DNA of 4,287 nt from a virus (taxonomy: Duplodnaviria; Heunggongvirae; Uroviricota; Caudoviricetes): positions 1 to 4,287 of the IMG/VR virus record IMGVR_UViG_2547132274_000008; one strand, written 5' to 3'. A program made the translations under genes and the position numbers. Every line of letters starts with the position of its first letter. Positions within the stretch are counted from its first letter, which is position 1. Of the stretch, positions 1-4,287 are shown in pieces. Under the pieces are notes generated by a model. It was given only the letters and a program-made list of their open reading frames with translations, was not told the DNA's origin and made no database searches.

Positions 1-5
1 GTTTC

Positions 6-581
6 ATGATGCAAATTAAAAAAATCACCAGTCCCCGCTACACCGAGTCCGGTGCGATTGACTGCGACGTGCTGTTTGAAGGAATGGAAGACCCGCTTCC
101 GTACACAGCCACGCCAGAAGACACCGCGACGACAGGTCAGCAAATCTGGCAGGAACTGCAAAGCGGCAAATGGGGAGAAATCGCCACGTTCACTGTCACG
201 CCGGAACTTATCGCCGCGGCGAAGGATGCCAAAAAACGAGAAATCGAGCTCTGGCGCACAGAACAGGAAGCGCAGCCGTTCACGTTCGAATGGAACGGTC
301 ACGCCTGGAACGGCGGTGCAGACTCAATAAGTCGTATTGCGCCTGTGGCAATGGCTGCAAAGGTGGCAGGTACGCGGTCAACGCTTGGATGGGGGGATGC
401 AGCAAATAACCTTGTCACACTGACAATGGCGCAGATTCAGGAGCTGGCAGCCGCGATGGCACAGGCGCAGATTGATCGCAATGACGAGATTTATCGCCGT
501 CAGCGACAGATGAAGAACGTGCTGGATAGCCTTAATAATCTTGCCGACATCCGCGCTTTTCAGGCTGGAGAGTCAGAATGA
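6..581 (+). CDS. Putative phage tail-fibre assembly / tail assembly chaperone-like protein (DUF4376-like C-terminal block); function tentative
   Basis: 191-aa ORF with ATG at 6 and a second in-frame ATG at 9. Codon usage is enterobacterial-like, with G/C-preferred third positions (acg, gcg, ccg, ctg). Its TGA stop overlaps the next start (ATGA at 578-581). The C-terminal segment WGDAANNLVTLTMAQIQELAAAMAQAQIDRNDEIYRRQRQMKNVLDSLNNLADIRAF resembles, from memory, the conserved C-terminal block of DUF4376 tail-fibre assembly/chaperone proteins. Only 5 nt precede the ATG and there is no in-frame stop in them, so the true start and RBS may lie upstream of the window. Confidence 0.7.
   Translation: MMQIKKITSPRYTESGAIDCDVLFEGMEDPLPYTATPEDTATTGQQIWQELQSGKWGEIATFTVTPELIAAAKDAKKREIELWRTEQEAQPFTFEWNGHAWNGGADSISRIAPVAMAAKVAGTRSTLGWGDAANNLVTLTMAQIQELAAAMAQAQIDRNDEIYRRQRQMKNVLDSLNNLADIRAFQAGESE
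567..572 (+). promoter_or_regulatory. Shine-Dalgarno site (GGAGAG) for the ORF starting at 578
   Basis: GGAG core at 567-570, 7 nt upstream of ATG 578, inside the 3' end of ORF1. Consistent with translational coupling. Confidence 0.55.
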
Positions 582-1291
582 AATGGGAAAAGGCAATTCT
601 GCGCCCGTCAGCCATGAACATTAAATGCTCTGTGGTTTGCCTTCATCCATGGTCAGAAAATACCGGAAACATCAAACCATCGGGGCGTTATCTCAGCCCC
701 GAAAATGCTGTATCTGCACTTTTACCCTATCTGAAAGAAAGCACAGAAAAAGACATTGTGGCGCTATTGTTTTGCGCTCCTTCTGCTGGCGAGTTTTTAT
801 CACTCGCCAGGCAATTTTCAGGCGCATTTCCATTGCCAGAGGTGGGGCGAATGTCCCGCATGATTTCCAGTCAACTTTCACTGGCCATCAGCAGAATGCA
901 AATCCCCGCCAGACCGGCAACATCACTTCCGGAACCGATAATGCTGTCGACACAGACCACTCGCAGCATGTCGCTGGCAGCAACCATTGCACAGGCAGCC
1001 ACTCCTGCCGCCACATCACCGGAAACATTGTCATCATCGCTGCATCAGTTCATGAATGCGAGAGATAAAGCCTTGCAGGAAATCGCTGATCAGCAGGCCG
1101 CACTCCGGCAAAAATTTTGCCCGGTGTGGCGCTTTTGCTACAAGGGAGCCCTTAGCCAGGCTGCAGTGCTGATACAAAAAAACATCCCACACCCCGAGTG
1201 GGTTTTTACAGCTGTGATGCTGTTCGTCGGCGATAATCTCTCATCACTAAGGGGAGCACTACATGACCCAGATGATTGTCCTTGCGCTTGA
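578..1291 (+). CDS. Hypothetical protein, Ser/Ala/Thr/Pro-rich with a low-complexity central region; no recognisable family
   Basis: 237-aa ORF. ATG 578 overlaps the ORF1 stop (ATGA) and has a GGAG RBS at good spacing. Its 3' end overlaps the ORF3 start by 29 nt. Codon usage is noticeably poorer than its neighbours (several AGA/AGG/ATA/CTA/CGA codons), and the central segment SQLSLAISRMQIPARPATSLPEPIMLSTQTTRSMSLAATIAQAATPAATSPETLSSS is low-complexity. Kept as a CDS because of the RBS and the operon packing, but it is the least certain of the four. Confidence 0.5.
   Translation: MKWEKAILRPSAMNIKCSVVCLHPWSENTGNIKPSGRYLSPENAVSALLPYLKESTEKDIVALLFCAPSAGEFLSLARQFSGAFPLPEVGRMSRMISSQLSLAISRMQIPARPATSLPEPIMLSTQTTRSMSLAATIAQAATPAATSPETLSSSLHQFMNARDKALQEIADQQAALRQKFCPVWRFCYKGALSQAAVLIQKNIPHPEWVFTAVMLFVGDNLSSLRGALHDPDDCPCA
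1249..1256 (+). promoter_or_regulatory. Shine-Dalgarno site (AAGGGGAG) for the ORF starting at 1263
   Basis: Strong purine-rich SD 6 nt upstream of ATG 1263, embedded in the 3' end of the preceding ORF. Confidence 0.6.
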
Positions 1292-1838
1292 CGGGGAAGC
1301 CATTCTGCTGCGCAACATCACCGTCAGCGCCACCATGCAACTACCGGACAAAGATATGTCCGGACAGTCAACCAGCACCACGAGCGCCCAGCAGGGAAAC
1401 AAGGCTAAAGAGCTGCGCGTGTCGGGGGTTATTGATTTTAACGATGAAGCTATTCTGACCCGTATTTTTCAGCTTGCGGAGGCAACAGAAAGCAACGGTG
1501 CCAAAAAAACATATCGCATTGCTAACGCTACCGCGAAGGCAATCAATATGCGACAGGGGGTGTTTTCTGGTGGCATTGATGCCACGGAACAACAGGGAAA
1601 AATGCACTGGCAGATCACCTTTACTCTCAGGGAAAAATTAAGCGTGCCAGAGAAAGCATCCGCACGCAGCGGTTCGCAGAAAACCATCGCCAGACAGCAG
1701 ACCCAGAATGGCAGCGAACAGGTACCAGACAAAGGCATGAATACGCAAAGTTCGTTCTGGAAAAAAATCAATGATGCCGTTGGCTCTGGTCTGGATGCTG
1801 TTGGCATCGGGAGCGTGAAAGAGGAAGGGAAAACATGA
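1263..1838 (+). CDS. Hypothetical protein (191 aa); no recognisable family
   Basis: ATG 1263 is preceded by a strong SD (AAGGGGAG, 6-nt spacer). Codon usage is typical of enterobacterial coding sequence. The TGA stop at 1836-1838 overlaps the next start (ATGA at 1835-1838). The protein is hydrophilic and Q/S/T/K-rich, with no motif I can assign. Confidence 0.7.
   Translation: MTQMIVLALDGEAILLRNITVSATMQLPDKDMSGQSTSTTSAQQGNKAKELRVSGVIDFNDEAILTRIFQLAEATESNGAKKTYRIANATAKAINMRQGVFSGGIDATEQQGKMHWQITFTLREKLSVPEKASARSGSQKTIARQQTQNGSEQVPDKGMNTQSSFWKKINDAVGSGLDAVGIGSVKEEGKT
1821..1830 (+). promoter_or_regulatory. Shine-Dalgarno site (GAGGAAGGGA) for the ORF starting at 1835
   Basis: Purine-rich GGAAGG/AGGGA run 4-6 nt upstream of ATG 1835. 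Confidence 0.55.
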
Positions 1839-3532
1839 AATTGATACAACGCTGCATGATTAATGGCGAACGGGTGGAAATTGCCGATATAAGCCTTGTT
1901 CTTACCCTGAATGCTGCCGGTCGTGGCTTCATTTCTGTTAACAATCTGTCACCCGAACACAGCCTTGCCGGCGCAATGGTACAAATTGATCTCGGCCGTG
2001 ACGGTGAAGCATGGCGCTATTTCTCCGGCTACATTGAGCGCGATCAACCTGCTGAAAATGGCTCACGTCGCCTTTTTATTCGTGAAGCGGCTGCTGTGCT
2101 GGATTTTGATTTCCCCTGCTCCATGCAACACCCGACGTTGCGGGGGGTACTCGATAATCTGGGGCGACAAAGCGGTATCGTTTTTATCACTCCGGATGCG
2201 GATTATGCCAGTATACCAACTCCCTACATCACCCACAGCGGCAGCGGAGCACAACTGCTCAGCCAACTGGGGCGAGCATTCAGTATCAGCGATTACGTCT
2301 GGCACCCTATGCCGGACGGTTCTGTATTTGTGGGAAGCGCAGCTGATTCACGATTTGCCAGTATTACAATGCCGGATATTCCGCAACAGTACACACTCGG
2401 GCAAAGCGGCGGAAACAGCATCGACATCATGTTTATGGAAACTGTGCGACCGGGCGTGAACCTACCGGCCGGGCGCATTACCCGTGTAGCCCTCAACAAC
2501 GAGAAAATGACCCTGACATGGGAGCGCCTTACCGCCACGGGTAACCCTGTTTCCAAATCACCATTACGCAGACAAATGGAAACACAGTTCCCGGAACTGG
2601 CCAGCGGTACGCTACATACCCGGCTGGCGCGCGTCATTGCGCCAACGGAGCCCACCACCCTGGGCGATGTGGCCGACAGTTTCCGCCCACGCTACGCCGT
2701 CGATGTGCAGTTGCTTGATGAGAACGGCAACGATAAAAGCGATACGCCCGTTTACCCGGCAGTACCGCTCCCCGTCCCCATGGCTGGCAGTGAGGCGGGA
2801 TGTTTTGCCTACCCGCCGGCTGGCACCATCGTGGAAATATCCAACATTGAAGGACGACCGGATAAACCTGTCATCAGGCAAATCTTACCCGCTGGTCATA
2901 ACCTGCCTGATGTAAAGCCCGGCGAACAATTGCAACAACAGCGCGCAGAAGTGTTTCAGCGTGTCACGACTGACGGAAGCTGGCACAGAGAAACCGACCA
3001 GCAAATCAGGGAGCATTCAGCCAGGCGAACCATTAACAGCGATCAGGAAGAACGCACAACAACAACCAGAACAACAACAGTACAGGCAAACGACATAACC
3101 AGCGTTCTGGGAACCAGCAAGCTGATGACAGGTCAGACAGAACACATTACTACTGGCCATTATGCGATCGCAGCCGGTGAGCATATCCAGATGGTAGCGC
3201 AGGATTTGCTGACTAAACTCAAAGGGGCGACATCCACCATCGAGCATAACCTCACCGAAAACGTGGGAGGCCGCAGAACATGCCGGGCGGACGGCGGCCT
3301 GGAATTTACCGCCCCGACTGTATTTATTGGGCGCGGTGGCTCACGGGAAAAATCCGGACTTAATCTGCTGACGTTGTTGATTGATATTCTGGATCTGGTT
3401 CAGTTGCTGGCCACACACACTGCAAACCACACCCACAGCAACACTGGCGCACCAACAAACAGCAGCGAACTTGCCGCAGACGCCCAACAGGCTACGAGCC
3501 TGCGCGAAAAATACGGCGACCTTATCGCCTAA
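1835..3532 (+). CDS. Hypothetical large protein (565 aa); possibly a phage structural spike/baseplate-like protein or a novel accessory protein; function unassigned
   Basis: Longest ORF in the window. ATG 1835 is coupled to the upstream stop and has an SD. Codon usage is good throughout. The TAA stop at 3530-3532 is followed about 40 nt later by a hairpin with a T-tract. C-terminal features include a Thr-rich stretch ERTTTTRTTTV, a segment with glycines every 7-8 residues (SVLGTSKLMTGQTEHITTGHYAIAAGEH) and the His-rich motif ATHTANHTHSNTG near the end. The embedded overlapping ORFs on both strands are treated as shadow ORFs. Confidence 0.75.
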   Translation: MKLIQRCMINGERVEIADISLVLTLNAAGRGFISVNNLSPEHSLAGAMVQIDLGRDGEAWRYFSGYIERDQPAENGSRRLFIREAAAVLDFDFPCSMQHPTLRGVLDNLGRQSGIVFITPDADYASIPTPYITHSGSGAQLLSQLGRAFSISDYVWHPMPDGSVFVGSAADSRFASITMPDIPQQYTLGQSGGNSIDIMFMETVRPGVNLPAGRITRVALNNEKMTLTWERLTATGNPVSKSPLRRQMETQFPELASGTLHTRLARVIAPTEPTTLGDVADSFRPRYAVDVQLLDENGNDKSDTPVYPAVPLPVPMAGSEAGCFAYPPAGTIVEISNIEGRPDKPVIRQILPAGHNLPDVKPGEQLQQQRAEVFQRVTTDGSWHRETDQQIREHSARRTINSDQEERTTTTRTTTVQANDITSVLGTSKLMTGQTEHITTGHYAIAAGEHIQMVAQDLLTKLKGATSTIEHNLTENVGGRRTCRADGGLEFTAPTVFIGRGGSREKSGLNLLTLLIDILDLVQLLATHTANHTHSNTGAPTNSSELAADAQQATSLREKYGDLIA

Positions 3533-3570
3533 TCACCGGGCATAAAATCCACATAAACGCCCCATCACGC

Positions 3571-3596
3571 AACGCACGGTTCAGGCCGTGCGTTTT
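3571..3596 (+). terminator. Candidate rho-independent terminator for the four-gene operon
   Basis: Inverted repeat AACGCACGG (3571-3579) / CCGTGCGTT (3586-3594) with loop TTCAGG, followed by TTTT (3593-3596) then CAT. The T-tract is short, so this is a moderate-strength terminator at best. Confidence 0.45.
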
Positions 3597-3655
3597 CATA
3601 TCTGCCACCTGATTAATGCGTTCTGCGTGCCATTCCGGCGCTGTATGCGCACACC

Positions 3656-3693
3656 ACGTAAACGGTGTGACGTAAAGCGTGAGGTGACGTAAA
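3656..3693. repeat. Three direct repeats of ACGTAAA (two extended to GTGACGTAAA)
   Basis: ACGTAAA at 3656-3662, 3669-3675 and 3687-3693. The second and third copies share the longer unit GTGACGTAAA (3666-3675 and 3684-3693). Read directly from the sequence. Confidence 0.6.
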
Positions 3694-3799
3694 CCGCGCT
3701 ACCCCCTCCAACCCGCGGGTTTTGTCTCGAAACACTTTTTCAGTTTTCTGCCGTGCAAAAATGACCGCCAGCCCGCGCAGCAACTGAGGGAAAAGCGAA

Positions 3800-4057
3800 G
3801 ATCTGAAATTTCACGTTTTGAAATTTTTTGCAGTTTTCAGAGGGATTTTTACGATCTCATGAATGGCAAGAGAAAGAAAACAGGCTGATATTAAAAGAGT
3901 TTTTATACTTTACGTGGGACAAGACACGATCGCGAAAGGATCGCGTTAAACAACCCTCAAACAAAGAAGCCCGACGTAGCGCGGCCTGCGCAAAATCAAG
4001 AGTCAGAATTAAACTGAAAAAAGGATCAATACCGCGCCTCGATCGCACATGACGATC
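3800..4057. other. Dense cluster of GATC (Dam methylation) sites in non-coding DNA
   Basis: By manual count, GATC occurs at 3800, 3853, 3928, 3939, 4024, 4041 and 4054, which is 7 sites in 258 bp. The preceding roughly 3.8 kb holds 8 sites (474, 1088, 1613, 1988, 2042, 3041, 3166, 3392). Confidence 0.6.
3804..3813. repeat. Perfect 10-bp palindrome TGAAATTTCA with an adjacent TGAAAT half-site copy
   Basis: TGAAATTTCA at 3804-3813 is its own reverse complement. An additional TGAAAT lies at 3819-3824 within an A+T-rich stretch. Operator-like, but no cognate regulator is identifiable. Confidence 0.5.
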
Positions 4058-4074
4058 TACGCAGCAACAGGACG

Positions 4075-4097
4075 AAAAAAACCGGCGCGAACGCCGG
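4075..4097 (-). terminator. Rho-independent terminator on the minus strand
   Basis: Read on the minus strand: stem CCGGCG, UUCG tetraloop, stem CGCCGG, followed by seven T (plus-strand A-run 4075-4081; stems at 4082-4087 and 4092-4097). A GC-rich stem, a classic stable tetraloop and a U7 tract make a textbook intrinsic terminator. Confidence 0.65.
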
Positions 4098-4138
4098 CGG
4101 AAGCATGTATCAAATGCGTGACTGAATAATGTCTGCGG
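4075..4138 (-). ncRNA. Candidate small RNA (about 60-65 nt) between a minus-strand promoter and the minus-strand terminator
   Basis: A sigma70-like promoter on the minus strand (see 4145-4174) would start transcription near plus coordinate 4137-4139, and the strong terminator ends at about 4075. The predicted transcript is 5'-CGCAGACAUUAUUCAGUCACGCAUUUGAUACAUGCUUCCGCCGGCGUUCGCGCCGGUUUUUUU-3'. This is purely a sequence prediction; I do not recognise it as a known sRNA. Confidence 0.2.
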
Positions 4139-4144
4139 TCGGGA

Positions 4145-4174
4145 ATTTTACATCAGAAGGCTGATAAGTCTCAA
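4145..4174 (-). promoter_or_regulatory. Candidate sigma70 promoter on the minus strand (-35 TTGAGA, 18-bp spacer, -10 TAAAAT)
   Basis: On the minus strand, TTGAGA (plus 4169-4174) and TAAAAT (plus 4145-4150) are separated by 18 bp. Each hexamer matches consensus at 5 of 6 positions. Confidence 0.3.
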
Positions 4175-4178
4175 CGGA

Positions 4179-4208
4179 TTGAAACAAGGGAAAAAACCAG
4201 GCTAGAAT
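4179..4208 (+). promoter_or_regulatory. Candidate sigma70 promoter on the plus strand reading out of the window (-35 TTGAAA, 18-bp spacer, -10 TAGAAT)
   Basis: TTGAAA at 4179-4184 and TAGAAT at 4203-4208 with an 18-bp A-rich spacer. The predicted start is near 4215 and the target gene would lie beyond the window end. It sits back-to-back with the minus-strand promoter candidate. Confidence 0.3.
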
Positions 4209-4287
4209 TCGCGCGGGTGCCTTTCGGCTGATGGCTGGAGGGTAAACCCGAAGGCCGGATGTGGAAAGGCCCCGAGTCAACTTTAAC

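Follow-up and report, generated by a model that had tools for sequence, protein, structure and literature searches.

Phage P2 uses separate proteins for the hub (gpD), the tube initiator (gpU) and the spike (gpV). In the literature on spikes, the H-x-H motif has been described as the only sequence feature that is conserved in every spike protein, and a C-terminal H-x-H marks the Apex domain, in which three copies of the motif cage an Fe ion; such spikes have no separate tip protein. For HP1 orf35, its counterpart in K139 and the other fused hub-spike proteins of the Peduoviridae, no structural or functional study was found in the literature. Here we describe the fourth open reading frame (ORF), ORF4, in a 4,287-nucleotide (nt) stretch of viral DNA (positions 1 to 4,287 of IMG/VR record IMGVR_UViG_2547132274_000008), and this whole stretch is referred to as the window. 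ORF4 is very likely a hub-spike protein of the HP1 orf35 kind, and it is probably the central hub-spike of an HP1-like contractile-tailed prophage, with an H-x-H apex built into its own chain.

The hub-spike family of ORF4

ORF4 is clearly a member of the HP1 orf35/PHROG 2258 hub-spike family. It matched the PHROG 2258 profile, 'baseplate protein', with an E-value (E) of 1e-232, amino acids (aa) 1-565 lying on profile positions 1-544 of 544, and it aligned over its full length with the phage members of this PHROG at 32-47% identity. At the protein level, homologs were found in Haemophilus phage HP1 (orf35), Vibrio phage K139 (orf39), Aeromonas phage phiO18P (gp46), Cronobacter phage ESSI-2 and Salmonella phage SI7, all of which belong to the Peduoviridae; the tblastn coverage was 100% for SI7 and ESSI-2 and 78-89% for HP1, K139 and phiO18P, and more than 1,100 relatives were found. 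The homologs of HP1, K139 and phiO18P are the last gene of their tail operons and are preceded by orf33-like and orf34-like genes, and the gene order ORF2-ORF3-ORF4 of the window matches that of these three phages and of an Escherichia coli prophage, with ORF4 the last gene of the tail operon. The annotation of the family is only generic and at times wrong. The homologs in MK972713 (28147-29868) and OM095401 (25333-26982) are labelled 'head completion protein' or partly 'adenine glycosylase', and both labels are almost certainly errors.

Conservation was read from an alignment of 36 ORF4 homologs (48-94% identity), and a monomer model of ORF4 was built with AlphaFold2 (AF2) from 36 sequences. 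The predicted local distance difference test (pLDDT) score of this model was 80-94 over aa 1-240 and poor over aa 350-500, as is expected because an obligate intertwined trimer would here have been modelled as a monomer. A Foldseek search of the PDB aligned the model over its full length with hub-spike fusions of the VgrG type (E 2.7e-18 to 5.6e-13), which included the contractile injection system (CIS) proteins of AlgoCIS (7aef_q, E 2.7e-18) and Anabaena (7b5h), VgrG from type VI secretion systems (T6SS; 9jg9, 8gra and 4mtk), Pvc8 (6j0m and 9qgm) and Afp8 (6rbk). The N-terminal ~300 residues were matched by the phage hubs of Mu (gp44), MuSo2, E217, PhiTE, P1, pyocin R2 and T4 (gp27), with E-values of 1.2e-9 for Mu gp44 (1wru), 6e-10 for 3cdd, 2e-8 for the E217 hub (8eon_E) and 6e-5 for T4 gp27 (1k28_D). 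Among the predicted viral structures in BFVD, those matching ORF4 carry names such as 'Phage protein D', 'Mu gpP' or 'XkdQ', and a hub-only protein of 243 aa matched the ORF4 hub with a template modelling score (TMt) of 0.76.

The two parts of ORF4 occur as separate proteins in some relatives. In Pseudomonas phage phi3 (NC_030940), the homolog is split into two ORFs (2501-3199 and 3184-4155), which are in different frames and overlap by 16 nt. The hub ORF encodes 232 aa, is unannotated in the record and aligned to ORF4 aa 1-231 (E 3e-40); the spike ORF is annotated as a 'Gp5 domain-containing' baseplate protein of 323 aa and aligned to ORF4 aa 246-546 (E 1e-56). Two-piece tblastn matches of this kind were also obtained in three other Pseudomonas phages. 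PHROG 4011 is a spike-only version of the protein, and its 315-position profile matched ORF4 aa 243-559 (E 4.3e-73). The boundary between the hub and spike domains of ORF4 is therefore fixed by the phi3 split together with PHROG 4011, and the split further indicates that ORF4 joins two units which are able to exist apart, as VgrG joins gp27 and gp5. In phi3 the hub-spike protein is seen in a naturally split state, either the product of a fission or the stage before a fusion. The tail module of a complete E. coli prophage related to the window contained no other hub, spike, gpV, gpD or PAAR gene. The idea of the original prediction, which was made from the letters of the DNA alone, that ORF4 might be a VgrG-like fused hub-plus-spike protein was thus borne out by the full-length fold matches, by the phi3 split and by this lack of any other hub, spike or PAAR gene. 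In Pam3, the so-called 'hub-spike' proved to consist of two proteins.

The part of ORF4 that follows the hub is predicted to hold an oligonucleotide/oligosaccharide-binding (OB) fold of the gp5/gpV type. Within this part, Phage_base_V matched aa 310-347 (E 0.02) with 15.7 bits, below its cut-off of 23.8 bits, and the VgrG model TIGR01646 matched aa 315-363 (E 5e-4) with 19.1 bits against a cut-off of 121.8; a second VgrG model, TIGR03361, reached 16.1 bits on ORF4 against a cut-off of 186.35. The profile of the ORF4 family matched the OB domains of VgrG proteins in the PDB with E 0.02, and the region lies inside the full-length VgrG fold alignments, with a local pLDDT of only 47-75. The most conserved stretch of ORF4, 'LPxxKPGEQLQQQR' (aa 357-370; 2903-2944), in which nearly all residues are invariant in the 36 homologs, sits between the OB-fold and the beta-helix at low model confidence.

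For the C-terminal part of ORF4, the original prediction had quoted three strings, and all of them are present where it had placed them: ERTTTTRTTTV at aa 406-416 (nt 3050-3082, position 3047 being in codon 405), the glycine-periodic stretch SVLGTSKLMTGQTEHITTGHYAIAAGEH at aa 423-450, and the His cluster ATHTANHTHSNTG at aa 526-538. The suggestion that the glycine repeat is beta-helical was confirmed as far as its period is concerned. Over aa 400-499, the spectra of glycine and of hydrophobic residues both peaked at a period of 7.5 residues; in 2,000 shuffles the glycine power was reached by none and the hydrophobic power by 0.2% (P<=0.002), and the mean spectrum over the 36 homologs had the same peak. 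Family profile positions 409-502 aligned to the C-terminal beta-helix of T4 gp5 (gp5 479-575, E 0.002-0.005), which was the best PDB sequence match to aa ~409-502 and whose end, 'SRIDIG', fell on 'V-x-I-G499' of the family. Gp5_trimer_C matched aa 393-442 (E 0.058, below the curated threshold), and the invariant glycines of the beta region in the 36 homologs are G426, G433 and G499. The Thr-rich stretch, which had been taken for a linker, is instead a non-conserved part of this beta region. Its richness in Thr is not conserved, since other homologs read ESRELVSRETTVKA at this place, and the residues that are conserved, E405, R407, R412 and T414, fit a structured beta segment better than a linker.

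The C-terminal tip and its H-x-H motif

The beta-helix is followed by a variable connector and by a tip of about 56 residues (Table 1). AF2 predicted a first helix at aa 511-530 with a pLDDT of 74-80. The hydrophobic moment of this helix was strong and peaked at 100 degrees, no beta-type moment (160-180 degrees) was found, Pro and Gly are absent from it in all 36 homologs, and the segment is conserved in HP1, K139, phiO18P and phi3. Its broad apolar face suggests two packing interfaces, and on the basis of the model helix 1 is probably an inner trimeric coiled coil. The loop behind the H-x-H has the consensus S/P-N-T537-G538-x-P540-T-N542 in the homologs, and a second helix was predicted at aa 543-564 (pLDDT 76-81), with a weaker hydrophobic stripe of the a/d type formed by residues 546, 550, 553, 556, 560 and 563/564.

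The mere presence of an H-x-H is unsurprising, as 0.40 are expected in ORF4 and three His within 7 residues were found in 11% of shuffles. Four of the 15 His of ORF4 (H99, H134, H532 and H534) are invariant in the 36 homologs, and H532 and H534 are also kept in HP1, K139, phiO18P and phi3. When the tips of five genera were aligned (the E. coli clade, HP1, K139, phiO18P and phi3), the only invariant residues were G499, N510, A530, H532 and H534. The terminal His-x-His cluster pointed out in the original prediction therefore stands for the invariant H532 and H534 but not for H528, which is not conserved (His in only 14/36 homologs). Because the invariance of the H-x-H matches the published Apex signature, we infer by analogy, and with rather more confidence than doubt, that H532 and H534 of the three ORF4 chains together enclose a metal on the three-fold axis of the trimer.

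A phmmer search with the tip alone against 1.84 billion representative proteins gave 41 hits, which were all of the same family and carried the module only at the extreme C-terminus. The hits of odd length were fragments or chimeric assemblies. P0124, P0141, P0152 and P0156 have the N-termini of tail-fibre, capsid or regulator proteins joined to the C-terminal part of the family, and these architectures are probably assembly chimeras or decayed prophages and not real alternatives. A tip-only profile search of the PDB sequences returned only noise and no solved relative. The tip profile was not significantly similar to the C-terminus of P2 gpV in hhalign, with no likeness beyond 'H-T-H'.

In the mechanism that we propose, ORF4 would act as a homotrimer. 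The hub (aa 1-~230) would cap the tail tube, probably via ORF3 as the tube initiator, a gp5/gpV-type OB-fold would follow at aa ~246-350, and aa ~375-499 of the three chains would intertwine to give a triple-stranded beta-helix. The last ~56 residues would be the built-in apex, in which the amphipathic helix leads to H532-x-H534; the six His of the three H-x-H copies would most likely form a cage on the three-fold axis around a metal ion, iron being the probable one, and helix 2 would probably fold back on helix 1 as a hairpin. Going by the model, the chances that the apex is such a helical hairpin are about even. On contraction of the sheath, this rigid and sharpened needle would be driven through the outer membrane of the host ahead of the tube. 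A separate PAAR-type tip protein would not be needed, because the tip is part of the ORF4 chain. A PAAR-capped spike complex was also considered and was rejected, as no PAAR/DUF4280 gene is present in the window or in the tail module of the related prophage. Only tentatively, and with some doubt, we suggest that the HP1-orf35 family carries an undescribed class of spike tip, a 'trimer of helical hairpins' in which a six-helix bundle with an H-x-H cage at its distal turn is fused with the spike and the hub. A bundle of this kind would resemble the inverted coiled coil found in the tail needle of P22 or in class I fusion proteins.

Several points weigh against the assignment of ORF4 as a central hub-spike with a built-in H-x-H apex. 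The original prediction had named the gp5_C, Phage_base_V and VgrG profiles, and matches were found in the right places, but the curated models for Phage_base_V, Gp5_trimer_C and VgrG all remained below their thresholds (E 0.02, 0.058 and 5e-4, respectively). The hhalign comparison of the family profile with the single sequences of P2 gpV and gpD was also not significant. The pLDDT of the beta-helix region was below 50 in the monomer AF2 model, which is uninformative on intertwining, and helix 2 is weakly amphipathic and less regular, with Gly or Pro in many homologs. The H-x-H of ORF4 is 31 residues from the C-terminus, compared with 12 in gpV, and is flanked by helices, and the geometry of the gpV cage is not simply transferable; of the gpV/gp138-type apex that had been predicted, the C-terminal H-x-H was found, but alpha-helices and not beta structure are predicted on either side of it. 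Moreover, under laboratory conditions P2 can infect without the gpV Apex. The T4 tip matters for fitness and on hosts with truncated lipopolysaccharide. How much the ORF4 tip contributes to function is therefore uncertain.

Other explanations of the C-terminal ~56 residues were weighed against the built-in apex. These residues might be a foldon-like element for trimerisation and registration, the H-x-H then stabilising the trimer instead of forming a membrane point, or a docking platform, for example for the ORF2 product. H-x-H cages in phage fibres are thought to hold the chains in register, helix 1 resembles a trimeric coiled coil, and in the orf33-34-35 end module ORF2 is conserved as a partner. 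However, the tip module invariably comes last in the chain, right behind the beta-helix, which is the site of apexes and PAAR tips, no tip gene was found in the related prophage, and the beta-helix of P2 is reported to fold without its apex, so we regard this explanation as unlikely; both roles are in any case compatible with each other. We give somewhat less credit to an apex in the form of a small gpV/gp138-type beta cone, for which the predicted helices would be an artefact of modelling one chain of an obligate trimer. It is true that monomer AF2 is unreliable in intertwined regions and that 'H-T-H-x-x-x-G' resembles 'H-T-H-K-H-P-G' of gpV, but a strong moment at 100 degrees with none at 160-180 and the lack of Gly and Pro in 36 sequences are not what a beta cone would give for helix 1. 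Both helices also reached a pLDDT of 74-81, compared with less than 50 in the true beta region, hhalign gave no similarity to the gpV apex, and the module has ~56 residues against 21.

By far the least probable is that the H-x-H is a catalytic metal site, as of a cell-wall hydrolase of the kind found in tail-associated lysins, or that ORF4 is part of a defence system and the H-x-H lies in an unrelated domain that binds metal, the latter being an option raised by the original prediction. M23 peptidases use H-x-H, and T4 gp5 carries an enzyme domain. The ORF4 protein, however, matched no enzyme or defence family in Pfam, NCBIfam or PHROG, a module of ~56 residues is too short for such a site, and besides the two conserved His it has no other conserved metal ligand. 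The neighbours are all tail genes, and for lysis the prophage already encodes an M15 endolysin. The defence-system and catalytic-site readings of ORF4 were both rejected on the gene context and the lack of a family match, and the tail-gene context excludes a defence cassette. What is new in ORF4 is probably the presence of hub, spike and apex in one chain, with a probably helical H-x-H apex; the tip module is specific to the family and without a solved relative among the PDB sequences, and the design appears to be structurally undescribed.

Neighbouring genes and prophage setting

The window covers the right-hand end of an E. coli prophage that is HP1-like (Peduoviridae), and over its full length the DNA is 93-97% identical to prophages that were found in 48 of the 5,426 complete genomes of E. 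coli. In one such prophage the genes upstream form a complete head and tail module of the P2/HP1 type. The related complete prophage has upstream genes for the portal, terminase, gpO/N/M/L, gpR, gpS, a DUF2586 sheath, an HP1 Orf24 tube, chaperones, tape measure, DUF2590, baseplate J, gpI and fibres, and also encodes the M15 endolysin. Four co-directional ORFs, which overlap one another, are present in the window (Table 1), and the Pfam, NCBIfam and PHROG scans of the window proteins gave no PAAR/DUF4280 tip gene.

The stop codon of ORF3 overlaps the ATG of ORF4 (ATGA), and the two genes are translationally coupled. The AF2 model of ORF3 has a core pLDDT of ~90 and a tube-like fold, for which the best Foldseek matches were tube-fold chains in solved myophage baseplates (the initiators of Bas63, Pam3, E217, Mu and A-1(L)), followed by tail tubes and Hcp. 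All of the E-values were modest (8e-4 to 1e-2) but the matches were mutually consistent, and for this reason the modelled ORF3 is probably the tube initiator seated on the ORF4 hub. ORF2 gave no informative match in Pfam, NCBIfam or PDB. It is conserved in HP1, K139, phiO18P and E. coli prophages, where it opens the orf33-orf34-orf35 end module, and the ORF2 product could be a further component of the baseplate core or a plug/glue component.

Behind ORF4, the RNA of the terminator-like hairpin folds with -16.1 kcal/mol (z = -4.6), and none of 200 shuffles folded equally well. This hairpin escaped a simple terminator scan because of its short T-run. In the K139 record a terminator is annotated at the equivalent spot, after orf39, and the hairpin probably terminates the late tail operon. 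No convincing gene was found downstream of ORF4 (3533-4287), and the Rfam scan of the window matched no RNA family. The end of the window (4187-4287) has 88% identity to a segment present in many Stx-converting phages, and a hok/gef toxin gene begins just past the window end in E. coli relatives. A promoter-like site (4179-4208, plus strand) and a strong terminator-like hairpin on the minus strand (4098-4081) were also observed.

Table 1. Features of the window and of the ORF4 protein, with nucleotide positions counted from the first letter of the window
Feature	Position	Strand	Description
ORF1	6-581	+	DUF4376 / tail-fibre-type protein
ORF2	578-1291	+	Matches to phrog_1677/31292, PHROGs without assigned function that include HP1 orf33
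ORF3	1263-1838	+	191 aa; HP1_ORF34 'baseplate complex protein', Pfam PF25759, E 2.5e-53
ORF4	1835-3532	+	565 aa; member of the HP1 orf35 family and probably the tail's central hub-spike
Hub domain, aa 1-231	1835-2527	+	Fold like gp27 / Mu gp44 / P2 gpD
Spike N-terminal helix and predicted gp5/gpV-type OB-fold, aa 246-350	2570-2884	+	Includes the 'EGRPDKPVIR' strand
Predicted intertwined triple-stranded beta-helix, aa ~375-499	2957-3331	+	Ends at invariant 'V-x-I-G499'; holds the Thr-rich and Gly-periodic stretches
Variable Gly-rich connector, aa 500-509	3332-3361	+	Joins beta-helix to tip; 6-7 residues shorter in 20/36 homologs
Tip helix 1, aa 510-530, NLLTLLIDILDLVQLLATHTA	3362-3424	+	Predicted helix, strongly amphipathic, with invariant N510 cap
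H532-T-H534 (H-x-H), putative Fe cage	3428-3436	+	Codons cac-acc-cac; invariant
Apex loop SNTGAPTN, aa 535-542, and predicted helix 2, aa 543-~560	3437-3529	+	Conserved T537, G538, P540, N542, Y560 and I564
Intrinsic-terminator-like hairpin	3571-3596	+	10-bp stem, then UUUU; 39 nt past the ORF4 stop

Comparison with known spikes

The analysis gives a role to a protein that is widespread under the label 'hypothetical / baseplate protein' and is carried by HP1-, K139- and phiO18P-type phages of pathogens. It would also explain the HP1-type relatives of P2 that have no recognisable gpD and gpV, as one protein does both jobs and brings its own tip. A single phage family offers both the fused version, in HP1 and E. 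coli, and the split one, in phi3, and this natural fusion/fission pair is useful for understanding how VgrG-like fusions arise. If the helical H-x-H apex is confirmed, it would be a third solution for sharpening a spike, beside the beta-apex of gpV and PAAR, and could serve as a compact module for engineering the spikes of tailocins or extracellular contractile injection systems (eCIS). If the six-helix tip is true, the protein would be the most compact central spike complex known, three parts in one, and the tip might be membrane-active and not only rigid. The role of ORF4 as the piercing tip of a contractile tail is in itself ordinary for a phage.

VgrG (TssI), Pvc8, Afp8 and AlgoCIS are fusions of gp27 and gp5 and gave the best full-length fold matches to ORF4, with weak sequence matches in the OB strand and the beta-helix. 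Unlike these VgrG/eCIS spikes, ORF4 is part of a phage tail operon and not of a T6SS or eCIS cluster, its chain has ~80-100 fewer residues, and it is far under the cut-offs of TIGR01646 and TIGR03361. ORF4 ends in its own H-x-H tip, whereas the beta-helix of the VgrG type has a blunt end that is capped by a separate PAAR protein; the Pvc and Afp spikes are capped by the PAAR-type proteins Pvc10/Afp10. ORF4 as a VgrG proper of the T6SS was rejected, as the TIGRFAM cut-offs were failed and the neighbours are all phage tail genes.

The spikes of P2 (gpV), phi92 (gp138), R-pyocin (PA0616) and Mu (gp45) share with ORF4 the order of OB-fold and beta-helix, both of them predicted in ORF4, and C-terminal H-x-H, a motif as strictly conserved as a catalytic residue. 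P2 is of the same phage family as the ORF4 phage, a PAAR gene is absent in both kinds, and the expected role is that of a rigid piercing tip. In spikes of the gpV type the hub is a separate protein (gpD in P2), whereas in ORF4 it is fused and is separate only in the phi3-like relatives. The gpV apex is a beta-structured cone of 21 residues with the H-x-H 12 residues from its end, while the ORF4 tip of ~56 residues is nearly three times as long and has predicted helices on both sides of the motif. Membership of ORF4 among the gpV/gp138-type Phage_base_V proteins was rejected, because the match is sub-threshold, the hub is fused and the apex is not a short beta cone.

T4 gp27-gp5-gp5.4 has the same three parts as ORF4, namely a hub, a spike of OB-fold and beta-helix, and a metal-containing tip, the OB-fold and the metal of ORF4 being putative. 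In T4 they are three separate proteins with an additional lysozyme domain, whereas ORF4 is one chain with no enzyme domain; the PAAR tip of T4 is monomeric and holds Fe by three His and one Cys, in contrast to the predicted three-fold symmetric H-x-H of ORF4. HP1 orf35, K139 orf39, phiO18P gp46 and the ESSI-2 protein have the same gene position and the same tip motif as ORF4, from which the relatives of the HP1 orf35 type differ only by sequence divergence and by small changes of length in the beta-helix and the connector. ORF4 works like VgrG in combining a hub with a spike, and like gpV in carrying an H-x-H apex as part of the spike, but belongs to neither of the two families.

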